Positions 2,175-15,244 are shown, counted from the stretch's first letter. The stretch: DNA of 64,000 nucleotides from Mycobacteriales bacterium (GCA_038260095.1 JBBSOC010000001.1:952-64951), one strand, 5' to 3'. Numbers and translations: made by a program. The notes: generated from the letters alone by a model not told the origin.

Positions 2175-3389
2175 CTACACGCCGCGGCTACCCCGGCCGT
2201 TGGCAGCGGCGCTACCTGCTAAGTGCGCTGTCTGCGACCCGCTGAGCTCTTCAGGAATCGCCGGCTCCGCTAGCTCGCTGGGAAACTTCAGCGGGGCTAG
2301 CAGCGGCGGGGCTTGCTCAGCATCTTTGGCTGCTTGATCGCCACGCGGCGAAGGGGAAGCCGCTTCGGCCTCAAGCGGATCCGCGGACGTTTCACCTGTC
2401 ATCTCGGCGTCGCCGACGCCTAACTGCTTGCGCCGCAGGTGCGAAATGGAACGCGACTGCCGCCCAGGTGTGGGAGTTGCCCGGATAGCTGGCCGAACAA
2501 AGCGACTTTGCTGCTGTCGAGCGGACGTTCCAGAGAACAGTTCGTCGGCCACCGCATGGTTCATTGCCCCAACGCTGATGTTCCGACCTTCCGGCCAGGA
2601 CTGATCTTCATCAGAAGCGTCGCGGCTCGGACTAGCCAAAGGTGGTGTAGACGTGTGATTGGCTTCTGGTTTGGAGCTGCGGGGTGACGGCTTAGGGGCC
2701 AACCGACTGCCATGAAAACCGCTACTAGCCGACTCGACGCTCGGAGCGTCTATTGCGCTTGCCGCTGCGGTTTCCCGGCGCAACGGAACGGACACACCGA
2801 AAGGCGCAGCAGTCTGACCCGCGGAGGAAGCACCTAGTTCCAGCAGCTGACAACCTTGATCATCGGTATACATCGCCGCGCGAAGCACCGAGACTGGCGC
2901 ACCGGTGTCGGTGAGGAAACCCAGAGCGGCCTCGGCTGAGCTAGTCATCGCAGTTGCCACAATCATTAACTGCGGGGTGCGAGAGCCCGATTCTGGCGCG
3001 ATCGGCGAAGTGGTTCCGCTGAACTCCTGCCAGTCATGCCAAAAATCGTCGTTTTCCCGCCAGTAACAGCTGGCGAGTTCGCTGACGGTTACGCCGCGCG
3101 CCCAACCAACCTGCTCCAAGCAGAATGCCAAACCAGCGGAATCGACCGTGGCCCCGGCGTACAGCACCACTATTTCACCCTGCTCGTCTAACGCGACGAT
3201 GGCCGGTGCATCCTCGTCGCCATCAGCACTGCCCCGAACAACTGGCAGCAGCCGCCGGCCCACAACAGCAGACAGGTCTGACCACAACGCCTCCATGAGA
3301 GCCTCGGTAGCCTCCACGTGAGGCACTGACTCACCAGTGACGCGTCGAAACGGGATCAAACCTTGTGCGGAGACACGAAACAACGACAT
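2175..3389 (-). CDS. Hypothetical protein: ordered N-terminal ~190 aa plus long Pro/Ser/Ala-rich tail
   Basis: 404-aa ORF with coding-like third-position GC. The N-terminal segment (AIVALDEQGEIVVLYAG..LEQVGWARG) faintly resembles a degenerate PD-(D/E)xK/NucS-like core. No family recognised. Confidence 0.5.
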   Translation of the reverse strand: MSLFRVSAQGLIPFRRVTGESVPHVEATEALMEALWSDLSAVVGRRLLPVVRGSADGDEDAPAIVALDEQGEIVVLYAGATVDSAGLAFCLEQVGWARGVTVSELASCYWRENDDFWHDWQEFSGTTSPIAPESGSRTPQLMIVATAMTSSAEAALGFLTDTGAPVSVLRAAMYTDDQGCQLLELGASSAGQTAAPFGVSVPLRRETAAASAIDAPSVESASSGFHGSRLAPKPSPRSSKPEANHTSTPPLASPSRDASDEDQSWPEGRNISVGAMNHAVADELFSGTSARQQQSRFVRPAIRATPTPGRQSRSISHLRRKQLGVGDAEMTGETSADPLEAEAASPSPRGDQAAKDAEQAPPLLAPLKFPSELAEPAIPEELSGSQTAHLAGSAAANGRGSRGV

Positions 3390-3806
3390 GAGCTTCCTCG
3401 GTTGGTGCTGAACAAATCATTCCGAAAGCAGCTAGCCTGCAGTAAAAACGTTGCACTAGCCTGGCTACCTTCGTTGGAAATTAGTAATGCCACCTGGCGC
3501 GAGCACCACGTGTTTACGCAACGTTTTCTTTCCGGCGGAGAGAACCAGAACTCAGCAGCCCAGGGGCAAGGCTGCTTTGGGGCCTTGAGCAAGCATCCCT
3601 GTGGGTGAAGCCAGAGTCAAAGCACCGACAGCTTGGGCGCGAGAGGTTCGAATTGACCGAGAAGAACGAACAAACATGGTGCACGACAGTAACCACGTTG
3701 TCGCACTCAATGCCACCCCGCTTCCCGCGCGTCTGACAGATTCTTAACAGACTTATACAACAAACATAGAGCCCTCAGCTACGCTTTGGGTTGCCGTATA
3801 GCTCAT

Positions 3807-3939
3807 GCCGGTTCTGCAGCACCAAACTATGTCCATGTTGCCGGCTTCACCACCCTGTGGTTCAGTACGCTATAGATAGCACGTCACTAGCCCTCGTAGC
3901 TCAGTGGATAGAGCACCAGACTTCTAATCTGATGGTCGC
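3807..3939 (+). repeat. Direct repeat copy 1 (tRNA-Arg upstream region plus first 50 nt of the tRNA)
   Basis: About 90% identical by eye to 13842-13976; identity stops inside the tRNA after ..GATGGTCGC. Confidence 0.85.
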
Positions 3940-3962
3940 TGGTTCGAATCCAGCCGAGGGCA
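3890..3962 (+). tRNA. tRNA-Arg (anticodon TCT)
   Basis: 73 nt. Acceptor GCCCTCG/CGAGGGC, T-arm GCTGG-TTCGAAT-CCAGC, anticodon loop CTTCTAA. CCA not encoded. Confidence 0.9.
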
Positions 3963-3998
3963 CTGATCAACCATGCCATAAAGTTGGCGCTCCAACAG

Positions 3999-4072
3999 GC
4001 CGCGCAGAATAGGCAGTATGGACGGTAACGCTCACATGTGCGGCTTTGACCGTGTCTCCGCGAACGAGAGGA
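3999..4072 (+). repeat. ~72-bp repeat, copy 1 (partner at 9560-9632)
   Basis: GCAGAATRGGCAGTATGGACGGTAACGCTCACA..TTGACCGTGTCTCCGCG shared with 9560-9632 in the same orientation. Confidence 0.8.
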
Positions 4073-4303
4073 CCTTCATTGATCGCACGCGAGTGGTCCA
4101 GTTCAGCCGGTAAGTTGGATCGATCGCTACAGAGCAGCGTTTGCCATCCGCCAGTGACGGCTCTCGATCCCACCTTACTGATCGCCATCACGCAGCGCAT
4201 CTCGAAACGCCCTGACGACGTCCCATGGCAACCGAACGTCTCCCAGGAAAATCGACGCGGTGGCGTTCCGGCCTGGCCACACCAGCCGGTCGGTCAGCAC
4301 TGA

Positions 4304-5022
4304 GGTCTACCACTGGAGGCCGATCCTGTCTTGTTGGCGGAGGTCAACGCGGGTTTCACGGTGTCGGTTGTTCGGCAGTTCGGGCAAGCGGTTGAGCAGA
4401 CTCACCGCGACGCCACCGAGACGGTCGGCAAGATGACTCAGGCGTATCAGGGCGCGGCGACCCAGCAGATGCAGTCGGGTTGGGCTCAACTGTCCTCCCA
4501 ACACGTCGACGAGATCGTCGCAGGCTGCACTGTTCTTTCCGGGGCGTTGGAGGTCGGGCGGTCTGGATCGTCGCCCACAAGGTCGAGGCGTTGGTCATCC
4601 TGGTCGAGATGGCAGTGGAATTCCTGGAAGCCCAGGCGGCCGCGGTGGAAACCCTCGGGGCCTCCGAGTTCTGACATGGCTGGAGAACTACGGGCCATCT
4701 TCACCGCTCTAAAAAAGGACGCCGAGAACGCGCTGCGTAGTATTGGTCAGCACTTCGGCAAGTTTTGGTCACGACACCGCCAACAAGGCCGAAGAGGCGC
4801 TCAAAGCGACAAAAAGCCACCGAGCACGATCTCAAAAGCAAGTGGGACGGGATCAAGACCAAGCAGGGTCTCGATGGGATAAAACCAGCTCAAGTTACCC
4901 GCAAGCCGCCCCCGGTCGATACGGTTGCTGGCCGTCGACCCATCAACTCCGCTGGTGCCGTAAAGCACACCGGAGGTGCTGCAATCATTCGCAGTCGTGC
5001 CGCCAAGCACAATTTAGATTGA
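4304..5022 (+). pseudogene. Decayed helical toxin-type gene(s) upstream of a SUKH-1 immunity gene
   Basis: Plausible coding sequence jumps between all three forward frames (4304-~4555, ~4555-4674, 4676-~4766, ~4745-4815, ~4800-5022). No single intact ORF; family not recognised. Confidence 0.35.
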
Positions 5023-5034
5023 GGAACAAATACC

Positions 5035-5559
5035 GTGATTCAATTCATCACATCTGGCCCTCCTGCTACCGCCGAACAAATTTCTCAGGTGCAGCAGACA
5101 CTTGGTCGTGACCTTCCCGGCCCCTATGTGGAATTCCTGCGCACTCAAAACGGTGGTCGCCCAGAGCCAAACATGTGCGATCTCCCCGAGGCTCGTTATT
5201 GGAGTGTTGGTGTCAGCGAGTTCTTCGGCATAGATCGGTCGCCAGATCTCCTTCAGCAGCGTCGTTCCTGCGAGGATAGGGTTCCCGAAGATCTGCTCGC
5301 GGTTGCTGATGCCGAAGGCGGCAACCTGATCTGCCTGGCGCTTGCGGGGGACCACCGCGGCGCAGTCTTGTTCTGGGATCACGAAGAAGAATCAGAGGAT
5401 GACGAACCTCCGGGATACGGAAATGTGCATCGAGTCGCCTCTGACTTCGATGCCTTCACCATCGCCCTCCATCCGGTGGCAGACCAGCCGTTACCAAGCC
5501 AGGTGCAGGAAGCATGGATCGATCCCGATTTTCTTACTGAGATCCGCAAAGATAGGTAA
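5035..5559 (+). CDS. SMI1/KNR4 (SUKH-1) family immunity-type protein
   Basis: 174 aa. N-terminal ..ISQVQQTLGRDLPGPYVEFLRTQNGG.. matches the SMI1/KNR4 signature. GTG start 13 nt after the decayed upstream ORF. Confidence 0.7.
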   Translation: MIQFITSGPPATAEQISQVQQTLGRDLPGPYVEFLRTQNGGRPEPNMCDLPEARYWSVGVSEFFGIDRSPDLLQQRRSCEDRVPEDLLAVADAEGGNLICLALAGDHRGAVLFWDHEEESEDDEPPGYGNVHRVASDFDAFTIALHPVADQPLPSQVQEAWIDPDFLTEIRKDR

Positions 5560-6113
5560 TCTCTCGACCGAGCGGGTCATTAAACCATCAGCACCATAAG
5601 CATTTACACCCCGACCCGTCTCGTTATAGGCCTAAAAATAGGAACGTTGTTCCGGTCCAGCCAGCCCGTGAGCCGCGCTTTTTGAATCATAGTCGAAGAA
5701 GAGTTGATTACGTCAGCAGAGTTCCCGTCCGAGTCATAAGCATATCGGATAAGCGTGACTCCTTGCGCGTTCTTCTCCATGGAGATGGAGAGCAGTGATT
5801 CGATCGCCGTTGGTCTCTACGCTGATTCAGTGCCTCACCTGAAATGCCGGACCATCGGTCAGAACTCCCATCCTGGTCGCAGTCAAGATCGATACGGTGT
5901 TTGGCTCGGCCGCCGATCACTTGCAATGGCAACCCTGCAGATGTGTTGACTGATGAAAAATGGAAGGTAAGACCGGGCTCGTGATCAGTGATAGCTCCTG
6001 TTCTTGGAATGTGTCTCCCGTTTACTTAAGGGCAGCTGCGCTAGCGCGCGCTCTGCATCCTCGCTACGGTTGCTCTTCTCCTTCATCACGTTAACGTTGG
6101 CGTTTAAGCGATA

Positions 6114-6591
6114 TTATTCACCATTGCGGTTAATTGCCGAATTGAGTGGAGAATCTGACAGGTTCTCGTTAGGAAAGGTTTCAGTAAAGAAAACTAGAGC
6201 ATCTTCGACCTTCAGGCCCTCGACATCGGGGGCTTGGTCGGGACCCAATGCCACGTAGCTTAAATTGAACATGAAAATCAAACTCATTGTTGCAGTTGCC
6301 TGACCAGGGGAAACGGACCGATTGTCGAGCGATCATGCGGCTTCGCTGAACAACGGACGACGACGAGAAAGCCCAGTTCAGAAGGTTGATCAAAAATAAG
6401 CTACGTGGCATTGGGTCGGGACCGAAGTGTTTGGTTACCACGTCATACATGACGTCTTCAACTTGTTCCACTTCCGCGTAGCTGGGTGATTCTTTGCTAA
6501 GTAAGCTAGCAAGCAGCTCAGGAGCCCTTTCTTGAAGGATACGATACACGACGTCACGATGAGGCTGCGCCACTTTTTCCAAGATGTTCAT
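6114..6591 (-). pseudogene. Immunity-type small gene interrupted by a 168-bp MITE-like insertion
   Basis: MNILEKV..VVTKHFGPD runs into the insertion. Removing 6246-6423 (element plus one 10-bp duplication) rejoins in frame to ..QAPDVEGLKVEDALVFFTETFPNE..NGE*, a 99-aa ORF. Confidence 0.6.
6246..6413. mobile_element. MITE-like non-autonomous element (168 bp, 16-bp perfect TIRs, 10-bp flanking direct repeat)
   Basis: TIRs CAATGCCACGTAGCTT (6246-6261) and AAGCTACGTGGCATTG (6398-6413). Flanking GGTCGGGACC at 6236-6245 and 6414-6423. No ORF inside. Confidence 0.65.
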
Positions 6592-6764
6592 TTGGGAAAT
6601 CTCCTTCCAGCACTCGATCTCGCCCATGCGGAAATAATCTTGCCGTCTTTGTTGAGGACGACGACAGCGTCTTTGCCCGTATAACGATACCCACCACCGT
6701 AATTATCGGGCTTATACTGGGACGGCTTGATCGGGTTGTTCACGGCATCCTCAGACCACAACAG
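6588..6764 (-). pseudogene. 5'-truncated toxin C-terminal tip (..GGGYRYTGKDAVVVLNKDGKIISAW..)
   Basis: Frame opens right after an upstream TAG and has no start codon. Its TGA overlaps the ATG of the downstream immunity-type gene (ATGA at 6588-6591). Confidence 0.4.
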
Positions 6765-7129
6765 CTAACCAGGCGACCTGCTCTTCTTGAAGAGAAGCTC
6801 ATCGCCGACTACCCGAACGGCCGACAACTACCGATCACTTAGTCCTTGCAGGCAGCAACCAGCGCGCGCCAGGCCAGTCGCCTCAACCGAATACCGGCCT
6901 GGTCGCGCGTTCAGATCGAAGTCAGCCGTCGCCGTTGCGCTGCTTCTGGGCCTCGGAGAAGTCGGCGTTGTAGCCGTCCCGGTAGCATCCTGCCTGACAT
7001 TCCCTAGGCCTTGGACACTATCGGTTCCAGCGGGAGTCGCACCTAATTCTCGGTTGCCCGCGTCGGAGCCAGGAACCCGTCGCCTTCCACACGGCTCAGC
7101 TACGAGCCGCGACCACACTTCCGTCTACC

Positions 7130-7537
7130 GTGGTGGAAGTTCGCCTCTTCGGGTTCAGCGAGGTCAATCTCTATCGCGCCCCCAGGGCCGGACTCGGCGG
7201 CAAGGAGCTCCTACACGGGTTCGATCCTAAAGACTATCCTGGACGTTTTGACGCACCCCAGCCTAACCCTGACGGTTCCGTCTACTTCAGACTTAATGAT
7301 GAATCCATTGCGGCGAAATATAGGGGGAGAGCAGGGTACGAGAATCGTATCCTCCGTGTCACCTTGCCTCGCGAGATCTTCGAAACCCACTTCGCCGGCA
7401 ATCGTAACTTCGGTTATTCTCTGGTAAGCATTATCGATGCGGGGCCTCAACAGCAGCTACAGGTGCCCAAGGAGTTGTTCAACATCCTGAACAGGTATGG
7501 AAAGAGATCCTGGTATGACGGCAGATCGCGACGCTGA
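7130..7537 (+). CDS. Toxin-like hypothetical protein (possible RES/ART-like motif GRFD..SVYF..ES)
   Basis: 135-aa ORF with coding-like codon bias. Only a GTG start and no clear SD, so it may be a 5'-truncated tip. Its 3' end overlaps the next ORF. Confidence 0.4.
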   Translation: MVEVRLFGFSEVNLYRAPRAGLGGKELLHGFDPKDYPGRFDAPQPNPDGSVYFRLNDESIAAKYRGRAGYENRILRVTLPREIFETHFAGNRNFGYSLVSIIDAGPQQQLQVPKELFNILNRYGKRSWYDGRSRR

Positions 7538-7787
7538 GCAGGAGGCTCAACGGGCCGGTTTCCGAGCCTTTGTGGACACGCACAAGGTAGGTGATGTCGT
7601 CACAGGAAGCGTGCTGGCTAACCGGCCATATGGTATGTTCGTGGATCTCAGTGGCGGGTGCATCGGATATATTGATGTCCGGCATCTCGCAGATCCCCCG
7701 ATCGAGCCCCCGATTGGAACAGAGGACACGTTCATTGTGGCGAGCTTCGAGGAAGGCAAGCCACGTGTCAATCTTCTTCCTGGTTGA
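7515..7787 (+). CDS. Stand-alone S1/OB-fold RNA-binding domain protein
   Basis: VGDVVTGSVLANRPYGMFVDLSGGCIGYIDVRHL matches the S1-domain consensus. The ATG at 7515 overlaps the preceding ORF by 23 nt. Confidence 0.55.
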   Translation: MTADRDAEQEAQRAGFRAFVDTHKVGDVVTGSVLANRPYGMFVDLSGGCIGYIDVRHLADPPIEPPIGTEDTFIVASFEEGKPRVNLLPG

Positions 7788-7894
7788 TCTTCGAGCGATG
7801 CATCAGCTTGCGGCTCGTACTGTTCAGGCGCCTCGATGTAATCCATCAGGTACTCATGGGTCGCTCACGGCGGGCGGTTGCGGTAGCGGAGTCT

Positions 7895-8374
7895 TTACCC
7901 GTCACCGCCACCCAATGGCCGGTCGCTGTCTTCTTGGAGGACCGACCCGCTCCCGGCCCATCGCGCGGCGGTTCGGATGAGCTCCAAACCGCTCGTTGAT
8001 TCGACCAGGCGTGGATGGATGAGGTGTACCCAATGAGCTTGGCTGGCGATGGACTTCCTCAGTCCGAAAACCGATTGTGCCCCGAGGGAGACCCTTTGGC
8101 GGGGGGCGAGACCGGCTGCCTCGACCAGCAGGTCGAGCTCTGCGGTGAGATACCGCTCCTCGTAGGCTGTCCAAGCGCTGGTGAGAATCTTTCCCTCTCG
8201 TGGTTCGAGGGATACCTCATAACCGAAACCGGTGGTCATATACGAGACGCTGCGGATTATATGGTCCTGGCGGCGTGGCCCGGCGAAGCCAAACTCATCA
8301 ACTAAGAAGCCGAACCGCGACTCCACCTCCGGGTAGAACGACTTCAACACGCTCGACCAGGCCTTCGTTCCCAT
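7895..8374 (-). CDS. Hypothetical protein, immunity candidate by position
   Basis: 159-aa ORF starting 26 nt downstream of the toxin-tip ORF 8401-8748; no family recognised. Confidence 0.5.
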   Translation of the reverse strand: MGTKAWSSVLKSFYPEVESRFGFLVDEFGFAGPRRQDHIIRSVSYMTTGFGYEVSLEPREGKILTSAWTAYEERYLTAELDLLVEAAGLAPRQRVSLGAQSVFGLRKSIASQAHWVHLIHPRLVESTSGLELIRTAARWAGSGSVLQEDSDRPLGGGDG

Positions 8375-8400
8375 GGTCTACCGCTCGAGGCAATTTTCGG

Positions 8401-8748
8401 TCATGGCCTTGTCCGAACGGGTATCCAATGATCTCCAGCTTGTTCCCATGCGTACCCCTTGTCGCGCAAATACTTCAGTTCCCTCTGGTAGGTGTTTCCG
8501 CTTTGATAAAGTGGTGTATCTGGATTCGTTACTAAGCGAATGTCATCACCACGGGCGATTGCATCATCAACATAACGCTTGTTGCGCGTCCAGGTCCAGC
8601 CGCCCACCCCTTTCTTGCCATTGGCCATCGTCCCTTGGATGTTGAGAAAGTCGGCATCAAGCTTCGTGTCGGGGTGATTGCGAATGTAGGCCTTTTCCGG
8701 TGCGGGTGAGGATGGCTTGGAGCTTACCCGCGCTTGACACTCGAACCG
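8401..8748 (-). pseudogene. 5'-truncated toxin C-terminal tip (..GGWTWTRNKRYVDDAIARGDDIRLV..GNTYQRELKYLRDKGY..)
   Basis: Frame is open from the stop at 8749-8751 with no upstream domain. The only ATG (8628) is internal. Confidence 0.4.
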
Positions 8749-8927
8749 TCAATCTCCTCAAACTGTGGGACCTCGGTCACGAGATCTGCTACGCCAAGCA
8801 GTTCGTCGCGAATCTCGTGCCAGACAATGCAGGGAAAACAGCGGCTGACCACGTACTCGATCAGGCCCCACCCAAATGCCAGGTTGCTCGACCCGCAGTT
8901 GGCCGATGGCGGCGTGGCGCCGCACAT
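8724..8927 (-). CDS. Small hypothetical protein (67 aa)
   Basis: High third-position GC from ATG 8927 (MCGATPPSANCGSS..WHEIRDELLGVADLVTEVPQFEEIDGSSVKRG). The upstream part of the listed 101-aa ORF looks non-coding. Confidence 0.4.
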   Translation of the reverse strand: MCGATPPSANCGSSNLAFGWGLIEYVVSRCFPCIVWHEIRDELLGVADLVTEVPQFEEIDGSSVKRG

Positions 8928-9066
8928 CGGATATGGCCCGCGTAGTTCGTGGTATCCGCGTATTCGGCGATGTGGAGTCAGCCTGGTTGGAGGCGTCTTC
9001 GGCCACGTCGTAGGGCGAACTGGGCCCATTTTCAGCTGGAACAGGAACCCTAGGAGGGAGAAATCC

Positions 9067-9543
9067 TTAAGAAAAGGCGAGCGTGGCGCGGCGGTAGTGG
9101 TGAGACAATGCAGACAAGCGGTGTGGGGGCCACAGATCCGCCTGCTCGCTCACGTTCAGGTCGCCGCTGCGGCGCAGCAGCCAGATTTGTTCGAGGTCCT
9201 TATGCAACACCGCGTCGCCAGGGACCCGGTCCAGCACGCTGGATACCAGCCGGATCATTTCATCCTGCTGGTCGGAGATCTCGCCCTCCTTGTCGAGACG
9301 GAAAACCACTGATACTGCCGGGGTGAACCCAAGATCGGTGATCACCGCGTTCCACGGCCGTGGTTTAGATTCATACACCCGAATCCAGGTGCCGAGCTCA
9401 GTCGCCGCTCCCTCGTTGAGTACTTGCTCGAGGGTGACCGACGCGTCGAACAGCCCGATGTTTTGGGCGGCGTCGTGCAGCTCCCGAGCCACATGCGCCG
9501 CAGGCAACGGCGTTGCCATGTCGAGATCGTAGGAGATGGCCAC
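9067..9543 (-). CDS. Immunity-type protein (SitI3-like by recollection)
   Basis: GTG 9543 preceded by GAGGAA. VAISYDLDMATP..GTWIRVYESKPRPWN..FRLDKEGEISDQQDEMIRLV..WLLRRSGDL. Family assignment is from memory and not verified. Confidence 0.5.
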   Translation of the reverse strand: MAISYDLDMATPLPAAHVARELHDAAQNIGLFDASVTLEQVLNEGAATELGTWIRVYESKPRPWNAVITDLGFTPAVSVVFRLDKEGEISDQQDEMIRLVSSVLDRVPGDAVLHKDLEQIWLLRRSGDLNVSEQADLWPPHRLSALSHHYRRATLAFS

Positions 9544-9559
9544 CTGAAATTCCTCGCTT

Positions 9560-9632
9560 GGTATGCAGAATGGGCAGTATGGACGGTAACGCTCACAATA
9601 TGCGTCCTTGACCGTGTCTCCGCGCACGTACC
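9560..9632 (+). repeat. ~72-bp repeat, copy 2 (partner at 3999-4072)
   Basis: Same-orientation copy lying just upstream (minus-strand sense) of the 9067-9543 gene. Confidence 0.8.
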
Positions 9633-10066
9633 TTTTGTTTGACCTGTCTCTCGAGCTGCCGGCACCGGCATGGCCCACTTGTCTTGGCTTGATCGGAAGC
9701 TTGTCCGCTTCCGATCGTGACTCTCCCCCGTGCTGCCGCGGCCAGTGACCTCTTCCCAGACCTGTACCGACCGCGTTCGCCCTGGATGAGAGGACAACCG
9801 CATGGTCATGCTGGCAGGGCAATACAACTACGTTATCGGGGCGACCCGACCGGGACACCATCGATCTGGCCACTGTGCCCCTAAGTACTGGGCTGGCATT
9901 GGCAAGGAGTTCGCTGTCGCGCGACCGGAGCCCACGAATATTTCGCCGAATCTGACCCACCCACGCCACAGCAGTTGTTCGTAGAGCGGATCTCGGCATG
10001 ACTCAGTGGGTCGTCCAGGTGCGGGTAAGGCCGCGGGTCGGGGTCAATTGTACTGAAGAACATCGC

Positions 10067-10573
10067 TTAATCGAGTGCGGCCAGCGAGGTCTCGTCGAGT
10101 TGGACGATCGGCTCGGGCTTCAGGTTCTCCTCGACCGTCCCGATTCGGATTCCGAGCGTGTCGACATCGATAATGCCGCTGCCCTCGGCGTAAAACCCCC
10201 CACCTCGCTCAAACATCACGAGCAATGGCTCGAATGGCAGGGGCGGTGCCTGCGGAAGATCTATCCCCACGTCGAGCAGCGCTGCAAAATGTAAAGCGCG
10301 GACACAGACTCTGGTAACCAGCGTCCCCTGAAGAGCTTTGCTCAAATTCGCCGCAACACGCTCAACGACTGCGGAATCAGCCCGAACGGTCGGGTTCACG
10401 GCGGCAGCGATATCAAAGAACGGCCACTGTTGCGACTTCGTGGCCTTTGCCCACCAGGCAGCTCGGCGAAGGTACTCCTTCATCAGATATCCGCGGGATC
10501 GTGTCTTGCCTGAGGGTGCGGACCAGTTGATAGAAAGGATCCGCTCGGTCAGGCCAGTCACATGATTAGCCAT
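10067..10573 (-). CDS. Hypothetical protein, immunity candidate by position
   Basis: 168-aa ORF starting 57 nt downstream of the Rhs-type toxin tip. Confidence 0.5.
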   Translation of the reverse strand: MANHVTGLTERILSINWSAPSGKTRSRGYLMKEYLRRAAWWAKATKSQQWPFFDIAAAVNPTVRADSAVVERVAANLSKALQGTLVTRVCVRALHFAALLDVGIDLPQAPPLPFEPLLVMFERGGGFYAEGSGIIDVDTLGIRIGTVEENLKPEPIVQLDETSLAALD

Positions 10574-10630
10574 CAGCTTCCTCCACCCAAGATTTACGAA
10601 TAGTGTCGTCCAGATTGGACAGGTCCGGTG

Positions 10631-11337
10631 CTATCTCCGTGATGCCCGGGTGATCCCGTCCCAGCGACTCCTGCCAGTGCCCGAACGGGTCCCGTTTGGG
10701 TCAACGAGCGGTGCGAGATCATGCGCTCCATGATGCTGCGGCGTCGAACGGAAGCCCAGTTCCGGGTCCCACGCGTCGGGGTGGATTGACCGGTAGGGAA
10801 TTCCGTTGTTCATGAGACTGCTCTCGACATACTCGTGCGCCATCAGCGGGTGAAACCGCTCCGCCTTTTCCGGTGTAAGCGTGCCGGCTTCCGCTTTAGG
10901 CCACAAGTCAACGAACTCAGAGTCTGGCGAGAAGTTCCCCCGCTGGGTTTGCCCAGGCCCAGTGGGAAGTTCATACTCGCGATTGAAGATGTGGTCTTTG
11001 ATCTGGTCCATTTTGCTCTGCGGGATACCGGTGTTCTCGGTTATCGCCAGATCGGCCGTAGATCGCCGTACCCACTTTCATCGAGGATCTCGGTAACATG
11101 CACGATATTAACGCGAACACTCATGTTAGCCCGTCCGAGTGCCATCTTGATCTGCCGAACTCGGCATGGAGTCAAACCGAGCGGACCTAGCCAGCCAACT
11201 GGGTTCGGTACATATGCATGCGAATTGGGTCCGCCATCGAGATGCAGCGGATCATTAGAGCGGTAACGGCCTGTTACCCGTAGTGGAATGGAGCGTGGGT
11301 GAGGATCTATGAACCGAGGGTTGCGGACGGTTTCCAA
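10631..11337 (-). pseudogene. Rhs/YD-family C-terminal core end plus toxin domain; 5'-truncated and frameshifted
   Basis: GRYRSNDPLHLDGGPNSHAYVPNPVGWLGPLGL matches the Rhs core-end motif (GRF.S.DP..N.Y.Y..NP....DP.GL). No YD repeats upstream. Frame changes near 11040 into a domain with HEYVE and HHGAHD motifs. Confidence 0.55.
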
Positions 11338-11853
11338 TGGGTTTTTCCGGTCGATGACGACGATTTTGAGACATTCTGTAGTTTCGACGGATCCTCCCGT
11401 GAGTCTACTTGGAGCCCTGTGAGAATGCGGCTGCTATTAGCTGACGACGAGGAGCGAACGCTAGAGAAATCAGACTTCCCTTGGCTTGGTGAACACGTAT
11501 TGATCTTGTCTTCCCGCGCTGTTGACGCCGTAGGGGGGCTGCTTCGAAACGACGGCGAGTTGCTGCCTCTAGCGTGCGACGAGCAAGAATTGTGGGTATT
11601 TAATCCTACGACCGTTGTTGATGCCCTGGATCAGAATCGATCTGAACTCAGACGATTCGATAGCGGCCGCATCATGGCAGTGTCGAATTATGTTTTTCGG
11701 GCCGAACTCGTAGGTGATGCCGTTGCATTTAAGGTGCCGGAACTTCATCGCGTCTCGACATTTGTGACCGAAAGATTCGTTGATGCGGTGAAGTCGGCCG
11801 GCTTGCGTGGGGTTGACTTTGAAATGCTGTGGGAATCATGCAGCGATTCCTAA
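11299..11853 (+). CDS. Imm11/DUF1629-like immunity-type protein
   Basis: 184 aa. C-terminal ..STFVTERFVDAVKSAGLRGVDFEML.. resembles the conserved Imm11 tail (recollection only). Confidence 0.45.
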   Translation: MRIYEPRVADGFQWVFPVDDDDFETFCSFDGSSRESTWSPVRMRLLLADDEERTLEKSDFPWLGEHVLILSSRAVDAVGGLLRNDGELLPLACDEQELWVFNPTTVVDALDQNRSELRRFDSGRIMAVSNYVFRAELVGDAVAFKVPELHRVSTFVTERFVDAVKSAGLRGVDFEMLWESCSDS

Positions 11854-12314
11854 ATGCACCTGTGGACTATTCACCGGCATTCACTGAACGAGTGAGTAAC
11901 GTGGCACAGAGCTTGTCTGCTGCGCTCGGCGTCCCGGTACGTCACAACACCGACATGAACTACAACCCCGGTCAACTGCTTGCTGTACACCTACTGCCCG
12001 ATGGCTCCGCCACCTCAGACGAGCGGGCAGCGTCGCATTCGGTGAGCGTCGCAGTATCCTCCCGAGGCCCACTGTGGGCAATGTTGGTCTTCCGTAAAGG
12101 AGACCGTGAACTGGAGTGGTTTCCCTCGACGGTTGGCGAGATTGAAGGCCAACGGGCCGACGAGGTTTTGACGACGATCGAGCGAACCCTGCACGCGGCG
12201 GGCTTCAAGCGGGTGCCAGACACAACATTGGAGGAATTGGTGCCGGGGCGGGTCACCGAACTCGATGGTGCTCCTGCCACAGTTCGTGACCTTCTCTTCT
12301 GCGAGGTATGTTGA
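11838..12314 (+). CDS. Hypothetical protein
   Basis: ORF overlapping the end of the preceding gene; ATG at 11838; no family recognised. Confidence 0.4.
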   Translation: MQRFLNAPVDYSPAFTERVSNVAQSLSAALGVPVRHNTDMNYNPGQLLAVHLLPDGSATSDERAASHSVSVAVSSRGPLWAMLVFRKGDRELEWFPSTVGEIEGQRADEVLTTIERTLHAAGFKRVPDTTLEELVPGRVTELDGAPATVRDLLFCEVC

Positions 12315-12596
12315 CCGCAAGAGTCTTTGTGTGGTGGGTAGGCAGGATGTTCGGCATGGCGATTTGGGGCGTGGCAATCTCGTCCAACTCGCCACGGTTT
12401 TCGCGCCCGAGTAATTGTAATTAGGCGGTGGGAACCATGGACAAGTGTACGCACGCCGGGATTGCTAGGGCACATAAATGTCATCGATCTCTGTTTCCAG
12501 TTGTCCACGACTGAACTTTCGCTCAGTCAATGACACAAGGGACTGCCCAGGGTTTGGTTGATACCTGACCTGTGAGGATTTGTCCTCGCTGGAAGG

Positions 12597-12893
12597 ATGT
12601 CGGCCATGCCGAAGCCCTACCCCCATGAGTTCCACGAGGATGTCGTGGCTGTTGCCCGCAAGGGTCAGGTTCCGTTGAAGCAGATCGCGAAGGACTTCGG
12701 GATCCCCGAGGGCTGTTTGTCGAACTGGATGAAGAAAGCCGACGTCGAGGACGGCAACCGTCCGGGCGTGACTGAGAAGGCCGCTGCTGAGCTACGCGAG
12801 CTGAAGAAGCGCAACCGGCTGCTAGAGCAGGAGAACGAGGTCCTGCGCCGCGCTGCGGCCTACCTGTCCCAGGCGAATCTGCCGGGAAAATAG
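12597..12893 (+). CDS. IS3-family transposase OrfA (HTH)
   Basis: 98 aa: ..PYPHEFHEDVVAVARKG..LKQIAKDFGI..LSNWMKKA..LRELKKRNRLLEQENEVLRRAAAYL. Ends at a GGGAAAATAG slippery-like site. Confidence 0.85.
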   Translation: MSAMPKPYPHEFHEDVVAVARKGQVPLKQIAKDFGIPEGCLSNWMKKADVEDGNRPGVTEKAAAELRELKKRNRLLEQENEVLRRAAAYLSQANLPGK

Positions 12894-12939
12894 TCTTCCC
12901 GCTCGTCGGTGAGATGGCCGCGACCGGTACCACATCAGG

Positions 12940-13798
12940 GTGCCGGTCGCGGTGGCGTGCAGGGTGCTGGGACTGACGACCCAGGGGTACTACAAGTGGC
13001 TCCAACAGCCCATCTCCCAGCGAGACTATGACGACACGCACCTGATCAACGCAGCCCTCGACATCCACGCCGAGGACCCCGGCTACGGGTACCGGTTCAT
13101 CGCTGATGGGCTCGCCCAGATGGGCATCGTGGCCTCTGAAAACCGGGTCTGGCGGCTGTGTTCGGCGCAGCGGATCTTCTCGGTCCATTCGAAGAAGCCG
13201 GAGCTGAACCGTAAGCCCGGCCCACCGGTGCACGATGACCTGCTCATGGTCCTGGACAAGCACGGCCAGACTGCTCGCCCGGGCCGCGACTTCACCGCCC
13301 AGACGCCGAACCTCAAGTGGTTAACCGACATCACCGAGCACCCCACCGGCGAGGCACCCTCTACCTCTGCGCGATCAAGGACTGCTACTCGAGTCAGATC
13401 GTGGGCTACTCCATCGACTCGAGGATGAAGTCCTCTCTCGCGGTATCGGCGATCTGCAACGCCATCGCGCTACGCGCGCCGCCGCCACGATCCTGCACTC
13501 CGACAGGGGCAGCCAGTTCCGCTCTAAGAAGGTCGTGCGACTACTCAAACACAACGGCCTGTTCGGCTCCATGGGCCGCGTCGGTGCCTGCGGCGACAAC
13601 GCCGCCATGGAGAGCTTCTTCTCGTTGCTGCAGAAGAACGTCCTGACCACCAAGAGGCGGAAGACCCGAGAGGAACTCCGCCTCGCGATCGTGGTCTGGA
13701 TCGAAACCAAGTACAACCGCCGACGCCGGTAACGCCGCCTGGGCAAGCTCACCCCGGTCGAGTTTGAGATGATCTACACGACCGCACACGCGGCCTAA
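12940..13798 (+). pseudogene. IS3-family transposase OrfB (DDE), multiple frameshifts
   Basis: The OrfB sequence (..CRVLGLTTQGYYKW..WLTDITEH..LYLCAIKD..HSDRGSQF..GSMGRVGACGDNAAMESFF..) is spread over three frames, beyond the one programmed -1 shift. Confidence 0.8.
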
Positions 13799-13841
13799 GA
13801 ACCACCCACCCCGAGTGTCAACCAAACCGGAGGCAGCCCCT

Positions 13842-13976
13842 GCCGGTTCTGCGGACACAAAAATTGTGTCCATGTTGCCGACTTCACCCCGCTGCGGTTC
13901 AGTACGCTATAGATAGCACGTCACTAGCCCCCGTAGCTCAGTGGATAGAGCACCAGACTTCTAATCTGATGGTCGC
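13842..13976 (+). repeat. Direct repeat copy 2 (abuts the IS3 right end)
   Basis: Matches 3807-3939; similarity ends at ..GATGGTCGC and then diverges into AT-rich sequence. Confidence 0.85.
13927..13976 (+). pseudogene. tRNA-Arg(TCT) 5' fragment (nt 1-50, lacks T-arm and acceptor 3' strand)
   Basis: Identical to 3890-3939 except for one T>C change in the acceptor stem. Confidence 0.85.
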
Positions 13977-14220
13977 AGCCGCTTTAAATCGACTAATAGC
14001 AGTACATACGTTATGTCTATGAGTCGGTGGTAAAGCTTGGGCACATTTTGGGCGCACATTATTTTCTACAGCTGGATTTCCATGATTCCCTAAAGCTGCA
14101 TAGGCAGCATTAGTTCGCCTCCACGCAACTAAGCTGTAGCAACCCCGAGGTCGGTCTACGTGAGGACGGGTGCGGTTCTATGCCGACGGTTCGATGCGGG
14201 TCGTCATGTTCTAATTGTAC

Positions 14221-14250
14221 GTATCGAGCTGATTGATTTCAGCTCGATAC
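14221..14250. terminator. 11-bp perfect hairpin downstream of hicA
   Basis: GTATCGAGCTG-(8 nt)-CAGCTCGATAC, 13 nt after the hicA stop. No clear U-tract on either strand. Confidence 0.4.
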
Positions 14251-14262
14251 GGCTGACCTGTG

Positions 14263-14490
14263 TTAGAGGAGTTCCTGGAGCTCTTCGCGGCTTATGCCAG
14301 CCGCGGTAAGGATGCTTTTAAGCGTTCCGATGGGAAGGTCTCGACGGTGCATTGGTACCGAGATCGGGTGTGCAAAATCGTGGTGCTGAAAAATGTGATG
14401 GCTTCCCGTGACCCGATCTAGGCTCCACCCCTTGCGCTCTAGGGCACGCACTACTTCCCTCGATGTCGCGGTAGGGAATTTAGGGCTCAA
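14263..14490 (-). CDS. hicA: HicA-family mRNA interferase toxin
   Basis: 75 aa: ..SREVVRALERKGWSLDRVTGSHHIFQH..PISVPMH..LPIGTLKSIL. TTG start overlaps the hicB stop (TTGA). Confidence 0.85.
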   Translation of the reverse strand: MSPKFPTATSREVVRALERKGWSLDRVTGSHHIFQHHDFAHPISVPMHRRDLPIGTLKSILTAAGISREELQELL

Positions 14491-14711
14491 GCCGCAATCT
14501 TAACTCGGTCATACTCGCGCCGGACTGGAGTTGGTAGAGACTGTTTATGGGCCGCCATGGATTCGAGGTAGCCCTGAATCGCTTCTTTTATCATTTCCAC
14601 GGCCTCTTCGTGAGTGCTGCCGTAGCTGATGCAGCCGGGCAAGCCAGGGACCGTAACCGTGTAGCCACCCTCGGGTTCGGGCTCCAGGATCACATCGAAC
14701 TCTCGCATCAC
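14487..14711 (-). CDS. hicB: HicB-family antitoxin (UPF0150 fold)
   Basis: 74 aa: ..FDVILEPEPEGGYTVTVPGLPGCISYGSTHEEAVEMIKEAIQGYLE.. Confidence 0.8.
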   Translation of the reverse strand: MMREFDVILEPEPEGGYTVTVPGLPGCISYGSTHEEAVEMIKEAIQGYLESMAAHKQSLPTPVRREYDRVKIAA

Positions 14712-14738
14712 ACATTCAGGCTACACGGTGTGTCAGAA

Positions 14739-14758
14739 TTTCCCCAATAAATTGGGGA
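14739..14758. promoter_or_regulatory. Perfect palindrome TTCCCCAAT-AA-ATTGGGGAA upstream of hicB (candidate operator)
   Basis: 9-bp arms, located 28-47 nt upstream of the hicB start. Confidence 0.45.
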
Positions 14759-15244
14759 AGTTTGACCTAGCTACTGTCTACACCTCTGGTGTCGAGTCTG
14801 GGGTTTACCCCGGCTGTGACGTTTCAAGCTGTGTTTGGTCTAGGAACGGCCCTAGATGACGATGGGGGCCAGCTTGGACAATTGGGTATGTAGCCTTCGA
14901 GGGTCGAGAGCTGAACACCAGTTGGCTGGTGGGTTGGGTAGTCCTTTGTGGGGTACCACCCTTTCCTTTCCAAAAGAAGGTAGCACCCGCACCCGCTGAA
15001 ACGATTCAAGCTATTTAGAGAAACGGCCGGGACGGCAGATTTTAGCGAGGCCATCCGTTGGCGCCACCGTGCTACCTCTCCGGCTGTTCGCTATAGGGGG
15101 AAAAACGAAGAAAATAAATCAGAAGCGTCTAAATGGTCGTCTTGCTGCTACAAGGGCGGATACGCTACTAGATAGAACGACTTTGCCCCCTGAGGATGGG
15201 TTTGCCGGTTGCGCCGCCCCGGTACCTAGATTTGGAGGTGCTCC

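Follow-up and report, generated by a model that had tools for sequence, protein, structure and literature searches.

We analyzed a 64,000-nt stretch of DNA from a Mycobacteriales bacterium (GCA_038260095.1 JBBSOC010000001.1:952-64951; hereafter, the window), in which an array of toxin remnants and immunity-type genes lies between a tRNA-Arg gene (3890-3963) and an IS3 copy (12538-13841). The array comprises seven modules on both strands, with modules 1, 3, and 7 on the plus strand and modules 2, 4, 5, and 6 on the minus strand (Table 1). The G+C content of the window is approximately 58%, its proteins lie on a 91-kb NCBI contig of a metagenome-assembled genome, the sequencing runs containing its DNA were soil metagenomes only, and the relatives of its proteins at 90% identity or more came from metagenome-assembled genomes labelled 'Mycobacteriales bacterium' or 'Acidimicrobiales bacterium'. 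An earlier note, made from the sequence alone, had described the array as toxin tips paired with immunity genes. We found that it is real, far beyond chance: four pairs of toxin stub and immunity gene (modules 2, 3, 4, and 6) recur as neighbors beside intact toxins in unrelated contigs, and three further genes (SUKH-1, SitI3, and Imm11) belong to curated immunity families. Five of the seven modules were right as described, and modules 1 and 5 need correcting. Neither Pfam nor NCBIfam provided a family assignment to tips 2, 3, 4, and 6, to the immunity genes of modules 2, 4, and 6, or to the open reading frame (ORF) at 11829-12314.

Table 1. Features of the array and its surroundings in order of position in the window (T7SS, type VII secretion system; MITE, miniature inverted-repeat transposable element).
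Feature	Position	Strand	Basis or remark
tRNA-Arg(TCT)	3890-3963	+	Left border of the variable region; ARAGORN; Rfam RF00005, 74.7 bits
63-nt direct repeat, copy 1	4004-4066		Just 3' of tRNA-Arg; repeat families D2 and D3
Module 1, core of a decayed WXG100/WXG100_2 gene	4364-4668	+	tblastn with P0068, P0071, and P0074; wider wreck is ORF 4331-4882
Module 1, SUKH-1 (SMI1/KNR4) immunity-type gene, intact	5035-5559	+	PF09346, E 2.7e-20
Module 2, immunity gene split by a 168-bp MITE-like insert	6114-6591	-	99 aa once the insert is excised
MITE-like insert	6246-6413 (6236-6423 with target-site duplication)		168 bp; 17-bp terminal inverted repeats
Module 2, toxin tip 2, last 55 codons of a T7SS-type WXG100_2 toxin	6588-6764	-	Front of the toxin domain gone
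Module 3, toxin 3, complete C-terminal toxin domain of ~115 aa, no delivery part	7130-7537	+	35 relatives
Module 3, S1/OB-like immunity gene	7497-7787 (alternative start 7515)	+	Overlaps toxin 3
Module 4, immunity gene, intact, 159 aa	7895-8374	-	Matches the gene after P0027
Module 4, toxin tip 4, near-complete toxin domain	8401-8748	-	Relatives carry the domain behind PT-HINT
Possible WXG100_2-like remnant upstream of tip 4 (weak)	8778-8912	-	tblastn with P0030 residues 127-181, 33% identity, E 6e-4
Module 5, SitI3-family immunity gene, intact	9067-9543	-	NF040657, E 3.5e-36
63-nt direct repeat, copy 2	9565-9628		Ends 22 nt before the SitI3 start
Module 6, immunity gene, intact, 168 aa	10067-10573	-	Neighbor-gene match
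Module 6, toxin 6 pseudogene	10566-11077	-	Frameshift near 10697; out of frame with the Rhs core fragment
Module 6, Rhs core-end remnant	11098-11316	-	tblastn with P0024, P0025, and P0035, 44-63% identity
Module 7, Imm11-family immunity gene, intact	11299-11853	+	PF07791, E 7.5e-10
Module 7, 161-aa ORF, intact, no family	11829-12314	+	Immunity gene presumed from position only
IS3-family element	12538-13841	+	27-nt inverted ends; integrase core split across frames
Partial tRNA-Arg copy	13861-13976	+	94% identical to 3824-3939; directly after IS3

The tip of module 2 (6591-6764, minus strand) was 91% identical to residues 399-453 of the WXG100_2-domain protein P0030 (453 aa; P and L numbers are our labels for proteins and loci), and its stop codon overlaps the start of the immunity gene (ATGA). 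At locus L006, two WXG100 (Esx-type) genes (esxA-esxB) are followed by P0030 and then by a 100-aa immunity gene, to which the module-2 product was 85% identical (E = 1e-61) once the MITE-like insert had been excised. These matches bear out the earlier description of a tip followed by an interrupted immunity gene. Measured against the complete esxA-esxB-toxin-immunity operon of the L006 type, the window holds tip 2 and the split immunity gene, and esx genes are absent. The insert occurs as a single copy in the window, has 17-bp inverted ends (CAATGCCACGTAGCTTA), and lies between the two copies of a 10-bp target-site duplication (GGTCGGGACC). Similarity between the window and the metagenome contig L002 breaks off within the inverted end of this element, pointing either to another element with the same ends or to an assembly break in that sample.

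Tip 4 shared 48-63% identity with the C-terminal ends of P0026-P0029 and P0031, and in the PT-HINT relatives the similarity begins a few residues past the end of HINT. The tip has no upstream start codon, and its first ATG, at 8628, would give 75 aa. Its immunity gene matched the gene following the PT-HINT toxin fragment P0027 (28% identity, E = 7e-17), so the pairing of 8401-8748 with 7895-8374 proposed in the earlier note stands on both sides. Compared with the soil-metagenome contig L010, this immunity gene had no indel and one synonymous change.

Module 6 combines two kinds of remnant. The Rhs core end, whose sequence ends ...YVPNPVGWLGPLGLTPC, lies in a frame open over 11041-11433; relative to P0024/P0025 it has an internal deletion of approximately 25 codons, and the stretch kept amounts to approximately 45-70 codons. 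Toxin 6 was 47-80% identical to the C-termini of P0002-P0022, among which those with an identifiable N-terminal domain are PT-TG proteins of approximately 325 aa. The immunity gene was 62% identical (E = 8e-66) to the gene following the intact PT-TG toxin P0010. Both tblastn and the neighbor of P0010 thus agree with the Rhs core end, toxin domain, and partner gene read here before, and the Rhs core end and toxin 6 may never have formed one single gene. An AlphaFold2 model of the toxin-6 family (P0005, mda1bb01351a3) showed a confident fold, with a predicted local distance difference test score (pLDDT) of 85.8. The toxin-6 domain has no Pfam family, and the model had no fold match in the PDB; its invariant K, H, H-E-x-x-E, and H-D residues suggest that it may be a metal-dependent enzyme of unsolved fold. 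PDB sequence searches with toxins 2, 4, and 6 returned nothing meaningful.

The frame of toxin 3 is open from 6998, and its first start codon is the GTG at 7130, before which no Shine-Dalgarno-like sequence was found. An exhaustive profile-free search with 6998-7537 returned 35 relatives, in which the domain of approximately 115 aa lies at the extreme C-terminus; the carriers included RHS-repeat proteins of 1162-1652 aa and one PT-HINT protein. Two initial toxin-3 alignments proved too divergent to be used in a locus scan. Among 37 reference-genome loci, where the carriers tested include ALF-repeat, RHS + PT-HINT, and RHS + DUF6531 proteins, a hidden Markov model built from the partner genes matched the ORF directly downstream of toxin 3 in 29 (23 of the 23 actinobacterial loci), and the pairing of toxin 3 with the S1-like gene is therefore well supported. 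The S1-like ORF of the window also aligned with the genes following four independent relatives of toxin 3. Its match to PF00575 reached 22.9 bits (cut-off, 22) but covered only positions 2-39 of the 74 in the profile, and the partner gene in L013 likewise gave a weak S1 match. Here the reading of 7130-7537 followed by an S1-like ORF has been confirmed through the 35 relatives and the recurrent partner.

The toxin-3 family matched no Pfam model. An AlphaFold2 model of toxin 3 (pLDDT 82.5) gave KptA/Tpt1, exotoxin A domain III, and PARP10/15 as the best Foldseek matches, with KptA/Tpt1 at E = 9e-3 and a probability of 0.97, and with TM-scores of only 0.34-0.51 across the matches of ADP-ribosyltransferase (ART) fold. 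The motifs LY[KR]AP, G.AYFG, and [EQ]V.IP resemble ART motifs, and there is no invariant glutamate. These weak but consistent fold matches hint that toxin 3 may be an ADP-ribosyltransferase. In cyanobacteria (loci L040-L054), the toxin-3 domain forms stand-alone ORFs of approximately 102-140 aa, most of approximately 123 aa; the S1-like partner lay directly downstream in 5 of 13, and two more had weak or more distant matches. This cyanobacterial arrangement looks more like a toxin-antitoxin pair than like the tip of a polymorphic toxin.

The remaining modules were assigned mainly through curated families. The SUKH-1 gene of module 1 matched PF09346 at 73.7 bits (gathering cut-off, 25.4) over profile positions 1-122 of 125, as had been expected, but the helical ORFs before it, previously counted as a toxin part, are a decayed WXG100-like gene. 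Its core (4364-4668) was 64-74% identical in two frames (tblastn) to residues 54-155 of P0068, P0071, and P0074, which are approximately 240 aa long; a frameshift lies near 4556, and the first 50 or so and last 85 or so codons are unrecognizable. The wreck gave weak Pfam matches to WXG100 and WXG100_2. Because the relatives have no separate toxin domain, it is not a toxin tip; no homology was found for 4669-5034. In module 5, the SitI3-like gene was upheld by NF040657 (124.7 bits; cut-off, 31; profile positions 1-140 of 140), whereas the decayed ORF 9600-10063, which had been proposed as its toxin remnant, has no toxin homology and was rejected. In metagenome relatives of this gene (72% identity), a CdiA_C domain (PF18451, E = 3e-20) closes the product of the gene upstream, and no trace of such a partner toxin was found in the window. 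On contigs L056 and L058, SitI3 relatives lie directly after a CdiA_C toxin, which ties the SitI3 family to that domain in actinobacteria-like contigs. Module 7 contains, as described earlier, an Imm11-like gene, which matched PF07791 at 38.9 bits (cut-off, 22.1) with only profile positions 105-190 of 194 matched. The 161-aa ORF beside it had no Pfam or NCBIfam match, and a chimeric-query search for relatives was empty, a weak negative as it scored only the best 8000 word-sharing candidates.

No full-length delivery gene is present in the window, in agreement with the earlier note: the largest ORF encodes 700 aa and falls in a protein cluster named elongation factor G. Searches of the window with Rhs, Esx, and WXG100_2 proteins gave matches only inside the variable region, and tblastn matches with RHS proteins were confined to 7079-7504 and 11098-11316. 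A YD-repeat-looking peptide at 5604-5780 (minus strand) was backed neither by Pfam nor by tblastn with RHS proteins and was rejected.

We then compared the window with two sister loci, L010 and L015, which are 97-98% identical to it over shared stretches and have different deletions and independent inactivating mutations. L010 is 97.3% identical to the window over 6752-12538. Its similarity breaks at 6752, and to the left of the shared stretch it carries esxA, an incomplete esxB, and a fragment of a P0030-like toxin (residues 85-123), where the window keeps residues 399-453 of such a toxin and the immunity gene. The two loci keep different pieces of the toxin and are therefore different deletions of one operon, the intact form of which is seen in L006; tip 2 thus arose by deletion in place of an esxA-esxB-toxin-immunity operon, not by cassette displacement. 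To the right of 12538, at the place of IS3 in the window, L010 goes on with five further genes: three that match immunity-associated or DUF families (DUF7668, Imm15, and DUF4240) and two ORFs without an assignment. L015 is a closer relative, with housekeeping DNA 90-99% identical to that of the window. It has 337 bp of its own between the points matching 4313 and 7490, leaves the window sequence at 9663, and rejoins it at 15067, a point that sets the variable region of the window at 3964-15066 (approximately 11 kb). L015 thus lacks 4314-7489 and 9664-15066; it has lost toxin 3 and kept the S1-like, module-4, and SitI3 genes. These three genes are kept in all three variants of the locus (window, L010, and L015), with their toxins lost or truncated.

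The state of toxin 3 bears on the possibility that the array contains addiction modules, in which the toxin 3/S1-like pair, possibly together with a HicA/HicB pair present at 14263-14711, would act as an intracellular toxin-antitoxin system stabilizing the island. Such a role would fit the complete toxin-3 domain with its GTG start, its 98% identity to the copy in L010 (P0033), and the stand-alone cyanobacterial ORFs with an S1-like partner directly downstream in 5 of 13. However, L015 lost the toxin and kept the S1-like gene, which is the opposite of what addiction predicts; in addition, the GTG at 7130 lacks a Shine-Dalgarno-like sequence, and the explanation would cover one of the seven modules. 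We therefore regard it as very unlikely. As toxin 3 has neither a delivery part nor an obvious ribosome-binding site, it could at most form a toxin-antitoxin-like pair with its S1-like partner.

Selection on the array was assessed against L010, from which the window differs by 142 substitutions and 16 short indels in 5.8 kb. The six immunity ORFs occupy 48% of the length, and 15-16 of the 16 indels fell elsewhere (binomial P approximately 4e-4). The pooled ratio of non-synonymous to synonymous polymorphism (pN/pS) was 0.27 for the immunity genes (approximately 30 synonymous and 24 non-synonymous changes) and 0.78 for the toxin stubs (10 synonymous and 25 non-synonymous changes; Fisher P = 0.017 versus the immunity genes), with values of 0.05 for SitI3 and 0.35 for the 161-aa ORF 11829-12314. 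Toxin 6 was inactivated in different ways, by a frameshift in the window and by a stop codon, with an intact WLDPLGL motif, in L010. The earlier claim that the toxins are broken and the partners mostly intact is accordingly supported by the indels and by pN/pS, except that the supposed toxin parts of modules 1 and 5 are not toxin remnants. Likewise, its suggestion that the cassettes are kept for immunity proved the better half of its reading, since indels avoid the immunity ORFs and pN/pS differs between the two classes. If the region were neutral wreckage, that is, a decaying leftover of transferred operons without present function whose immunity genes have merely not yet been struck, the same indels should fall on the immunity ORFs as well, and pN/pS should not separate the immunity genes from the stubs as it does; nor would the retention of the S1-like, module-4, and SitI3 genes in three of three variants be expected while toxins are lost or truncated. 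This explanation is in keeping with the immunity gene already broken by the MITE-like insert, the IS3 copy, and the large blocks lost in relatives, and we consider it unlikely.

The other half of the earlier reading held that the array consists of silent orphan toxin-immunity cassettes kept so as to recombine into a main gene, of the rhs or another polymorphic-toxin type, at a different place in the genome, which would change the weapon of the cell. The Rhs core-end stretch upstream of toxin 6 and the complete or nearly complete domains of toxins 3 and 4 are features that such a reservoir would have, and recombining orphan rhs/cdi cassettes are known (PMC3482391). However, only one of five stubs has homology in the pre-toxin part, which recombination would use, and there the stretch is short, out of frame, and marked by an internal deletion. 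The carriers are of different kinds (T7SS, PT-HINT, Rhs, and PT-TG), giving at least three delivery architectures, and the orientation is mixed. Stubs 2 and 6 are truncated or frameshifted within the toxin domain and decay independently in sister loci through separate nonsense and frameshift mutations, and no main gene is present in the window. On this evidence a cassette reservoir appears quite improbable, and this part of the earlier note is not supported.

The setting of the array was examined for signs of mobility. An Rfam scan of the window gave no RNA family besides tRNA. The partial tRNA-Arg copy after IS3 belongs to a duplication (13835/13861-13976 versus 3800-3939) that consists of the 5' 50 nt of tRNA-Arg and approximately 65-90 nt of upstream DNA, whereas a classical integrase duplicates the 3' part of a tRNA gene and not its 5' part. 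No further copy of the 3' end of tRNA-Arg was found in the window. The region therefore differs from a tRNA-linked genomic island both in the repeated part and in that no integrase was found: neither the ORFs given to Pfam/NCBIfam nor the gene table of L015 yielded an integrase or Xer recombinase match in a region scan that was non-exhaustive. The name 'mobile island' would therefore exceed the evidence. Both copies of the 63-nt direct repeat occur also in L010 and L015, the synteny of L015 ends at 9663, and the repeat had no match in the metagenome contigs searched; it may be the scar of an earlier recombination or attachment event. The IS3 element looks degenerate, as its integrase core spreads over two overlapping frames, more than the usual programmed frameshift, and it was the sole match in a search of a plasmid collection. 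The HicA toxin/HicB antitoxin pair at 14263-14711 (minus strand; PF07927, E = 5.5e-20; PF15919, E = 7e-14) sits inside the strain-variable stretch and is missing from L015. Between otsA and tRNA-Arg lies a 404-aa ORF (2175-3389, minus strand) with a Pro/Ser/Ala-rich C-terminal half and no Pfam match.

Heterogeneous polyimmunity loci are strain-variable and occur in bacteria including actinobacteria (Zhang, de Souza, Anantharaman, Iyer, and Aravind 2012; PMC3482391). We propose, with a probability of about 0.7, that the array is such a locus beside tRNA-Arg, strain-variable in content and forming a graveyard of toxin operons that decayed in place. Complete toxin-immunity operons of several delivery types would have come in by horizontal transfer, including ESX/T7SS WXG100_2 toxins with esxA/esxB, one Rhs protein, and toxins with PT-HINT- or PT-TG-borne relatives. 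Internal deletions, frameshifts, and nonsense mutations would then have removed their delivery and toxin parts in place, while purifying selection would have kept the immunity genes (SUKH-1, S1-like, module-4, module-6, SitI3, Imm11, and the 161-aa ORF); that of module 2 has been lost through the MITE insertion. The genes kept would neutralize matching toxins delivered by neighboring actinobacteria. A protective role against incoming toxins is likely, judging from the signs of selection and from family membership, and the stubs are not functional weapons.

Several properties of the array agree with the loci of PMC3482391. At least four unrelated immunity families are clustered without a complete toxin: SUKH-1, Imm11, and SitI3 were assigned through curated models, and the S1-like, module-2, module-4, and module-6 genes through conserved pairing with toxins. 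The content varies between close strains (window, L010, and L015), SUKH and Imm11 are typical members, and actinobacterial occurrence is on record. Other properties do not agree. Recognizable stubs of the former toxins are still attached here, and the XerC/D-type recombinase adjacent to several polyimmunity loci, which is not obligatory, was not found; IS3, a MITE, and a tRNA gene are present.

Some observations weigh against our proposal. The genes lie on both strands and run in both directions, whereas those in the loci of Zhang et al. are co-directional and probably polycistronic, as would suit a single transcript. The module-2 immunity gene was destroyed by the MITE, and hence maintenance does not extend to all immunity genes. 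The non-exhaustive scan of the region found neither an integrase nor a Xer recombinase. The counts of substitutions are small (142 differences in 5.8 kb), though the results agree with each other. Moreover, the search for delivery genes covered the window, and a main toxin gene may lie elsewhere in the genome; the organism is known from metagenomes only.

Three other known systems share parts of this organization. Orphan rhs/cdi arrays of Enterobacteria consist of toxin tips without start codons followed by intact immunity genes. The array described here likewise has tips without start codons and intact immunity genes, and one stub with an Rhs core end of the PxxxxDPxGL type. Unlike those arrays, it has no full-length rhs gene upstream (no ORF exceeds 700 aa), its only core-end stretch is the internally deleted one at 11098-11316, with none at tips 2, 3, and 4, and it involves several delivery systems in mixed orientation, with at least one stub produced by deletion in place. 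In Firmicutes, orphan immunity genes of the T7SS, for example esaG and tsaI, are arranged in strings that are strain-variable and likewise keep immunity against T7SS-delivered toxins without the toxin (PMC9484751). Those strings consist of paralogues from a single family, placed in tandem and shaped through homologous recombination, whereas each gene here belongs to a different family; and unlike the LXG toxins of Firmicutes, the toxins here have WXG100_2 N-terminal domains and the host is actinobacterial. Acquired interbacterial defence (AID) gene clusters of Bacteroidales are mentioned in PMC10470768. They are also arrays of orphan immunity genes in variable, horizontally acquired regions and are thought to protect against the toxins of other strains. 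AID clusters are located on defined mobile elements with recombinases and counter toxins of the type VI secretion system, whereas no recombinase or transfer genes were seen here.

The category to which the locus belongs is already well known, and the general picture is unchanged. The main new detail is the toxin 3/S1-like immunity family, which has no Pfam model and whose members are adjacent in 29 of 37 genomes. It is conceivable, although rather doubtful, that an undescribed family joins a small toxin of ART fold, bearing a motif of the K/R-Y-[E/Q] type, to an S1-like OB-fold immunity protein, which may imitate a nucleic-acid-binding or translation-factor target of the toxin, the pair being borne by Rhs, PT-HINT, and ALF-repeat (umbrella-toxin-type) carriers in Actinomycetes and standing alone in cyanobacteria, and that the locus is an actinobacterial counterpart of AID clusters beside tRNA-Arg.

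In addition, three nearly identical variants of the locus show how a polyimmunity locus can form: operons arrive, the weapon erodes, and the antidote is selected. They provide an example from soil actinobacteria, whose warfare by ESX/T7SS, Rhs, and umbrella-particle toxins has received far less attention than that of Proteobacteria and Firmicutes. Four toxin domains and at least four immunity proteins that no Pfam family covers also come from this locus, and among them the ART-like/S1-like pair is widespread.

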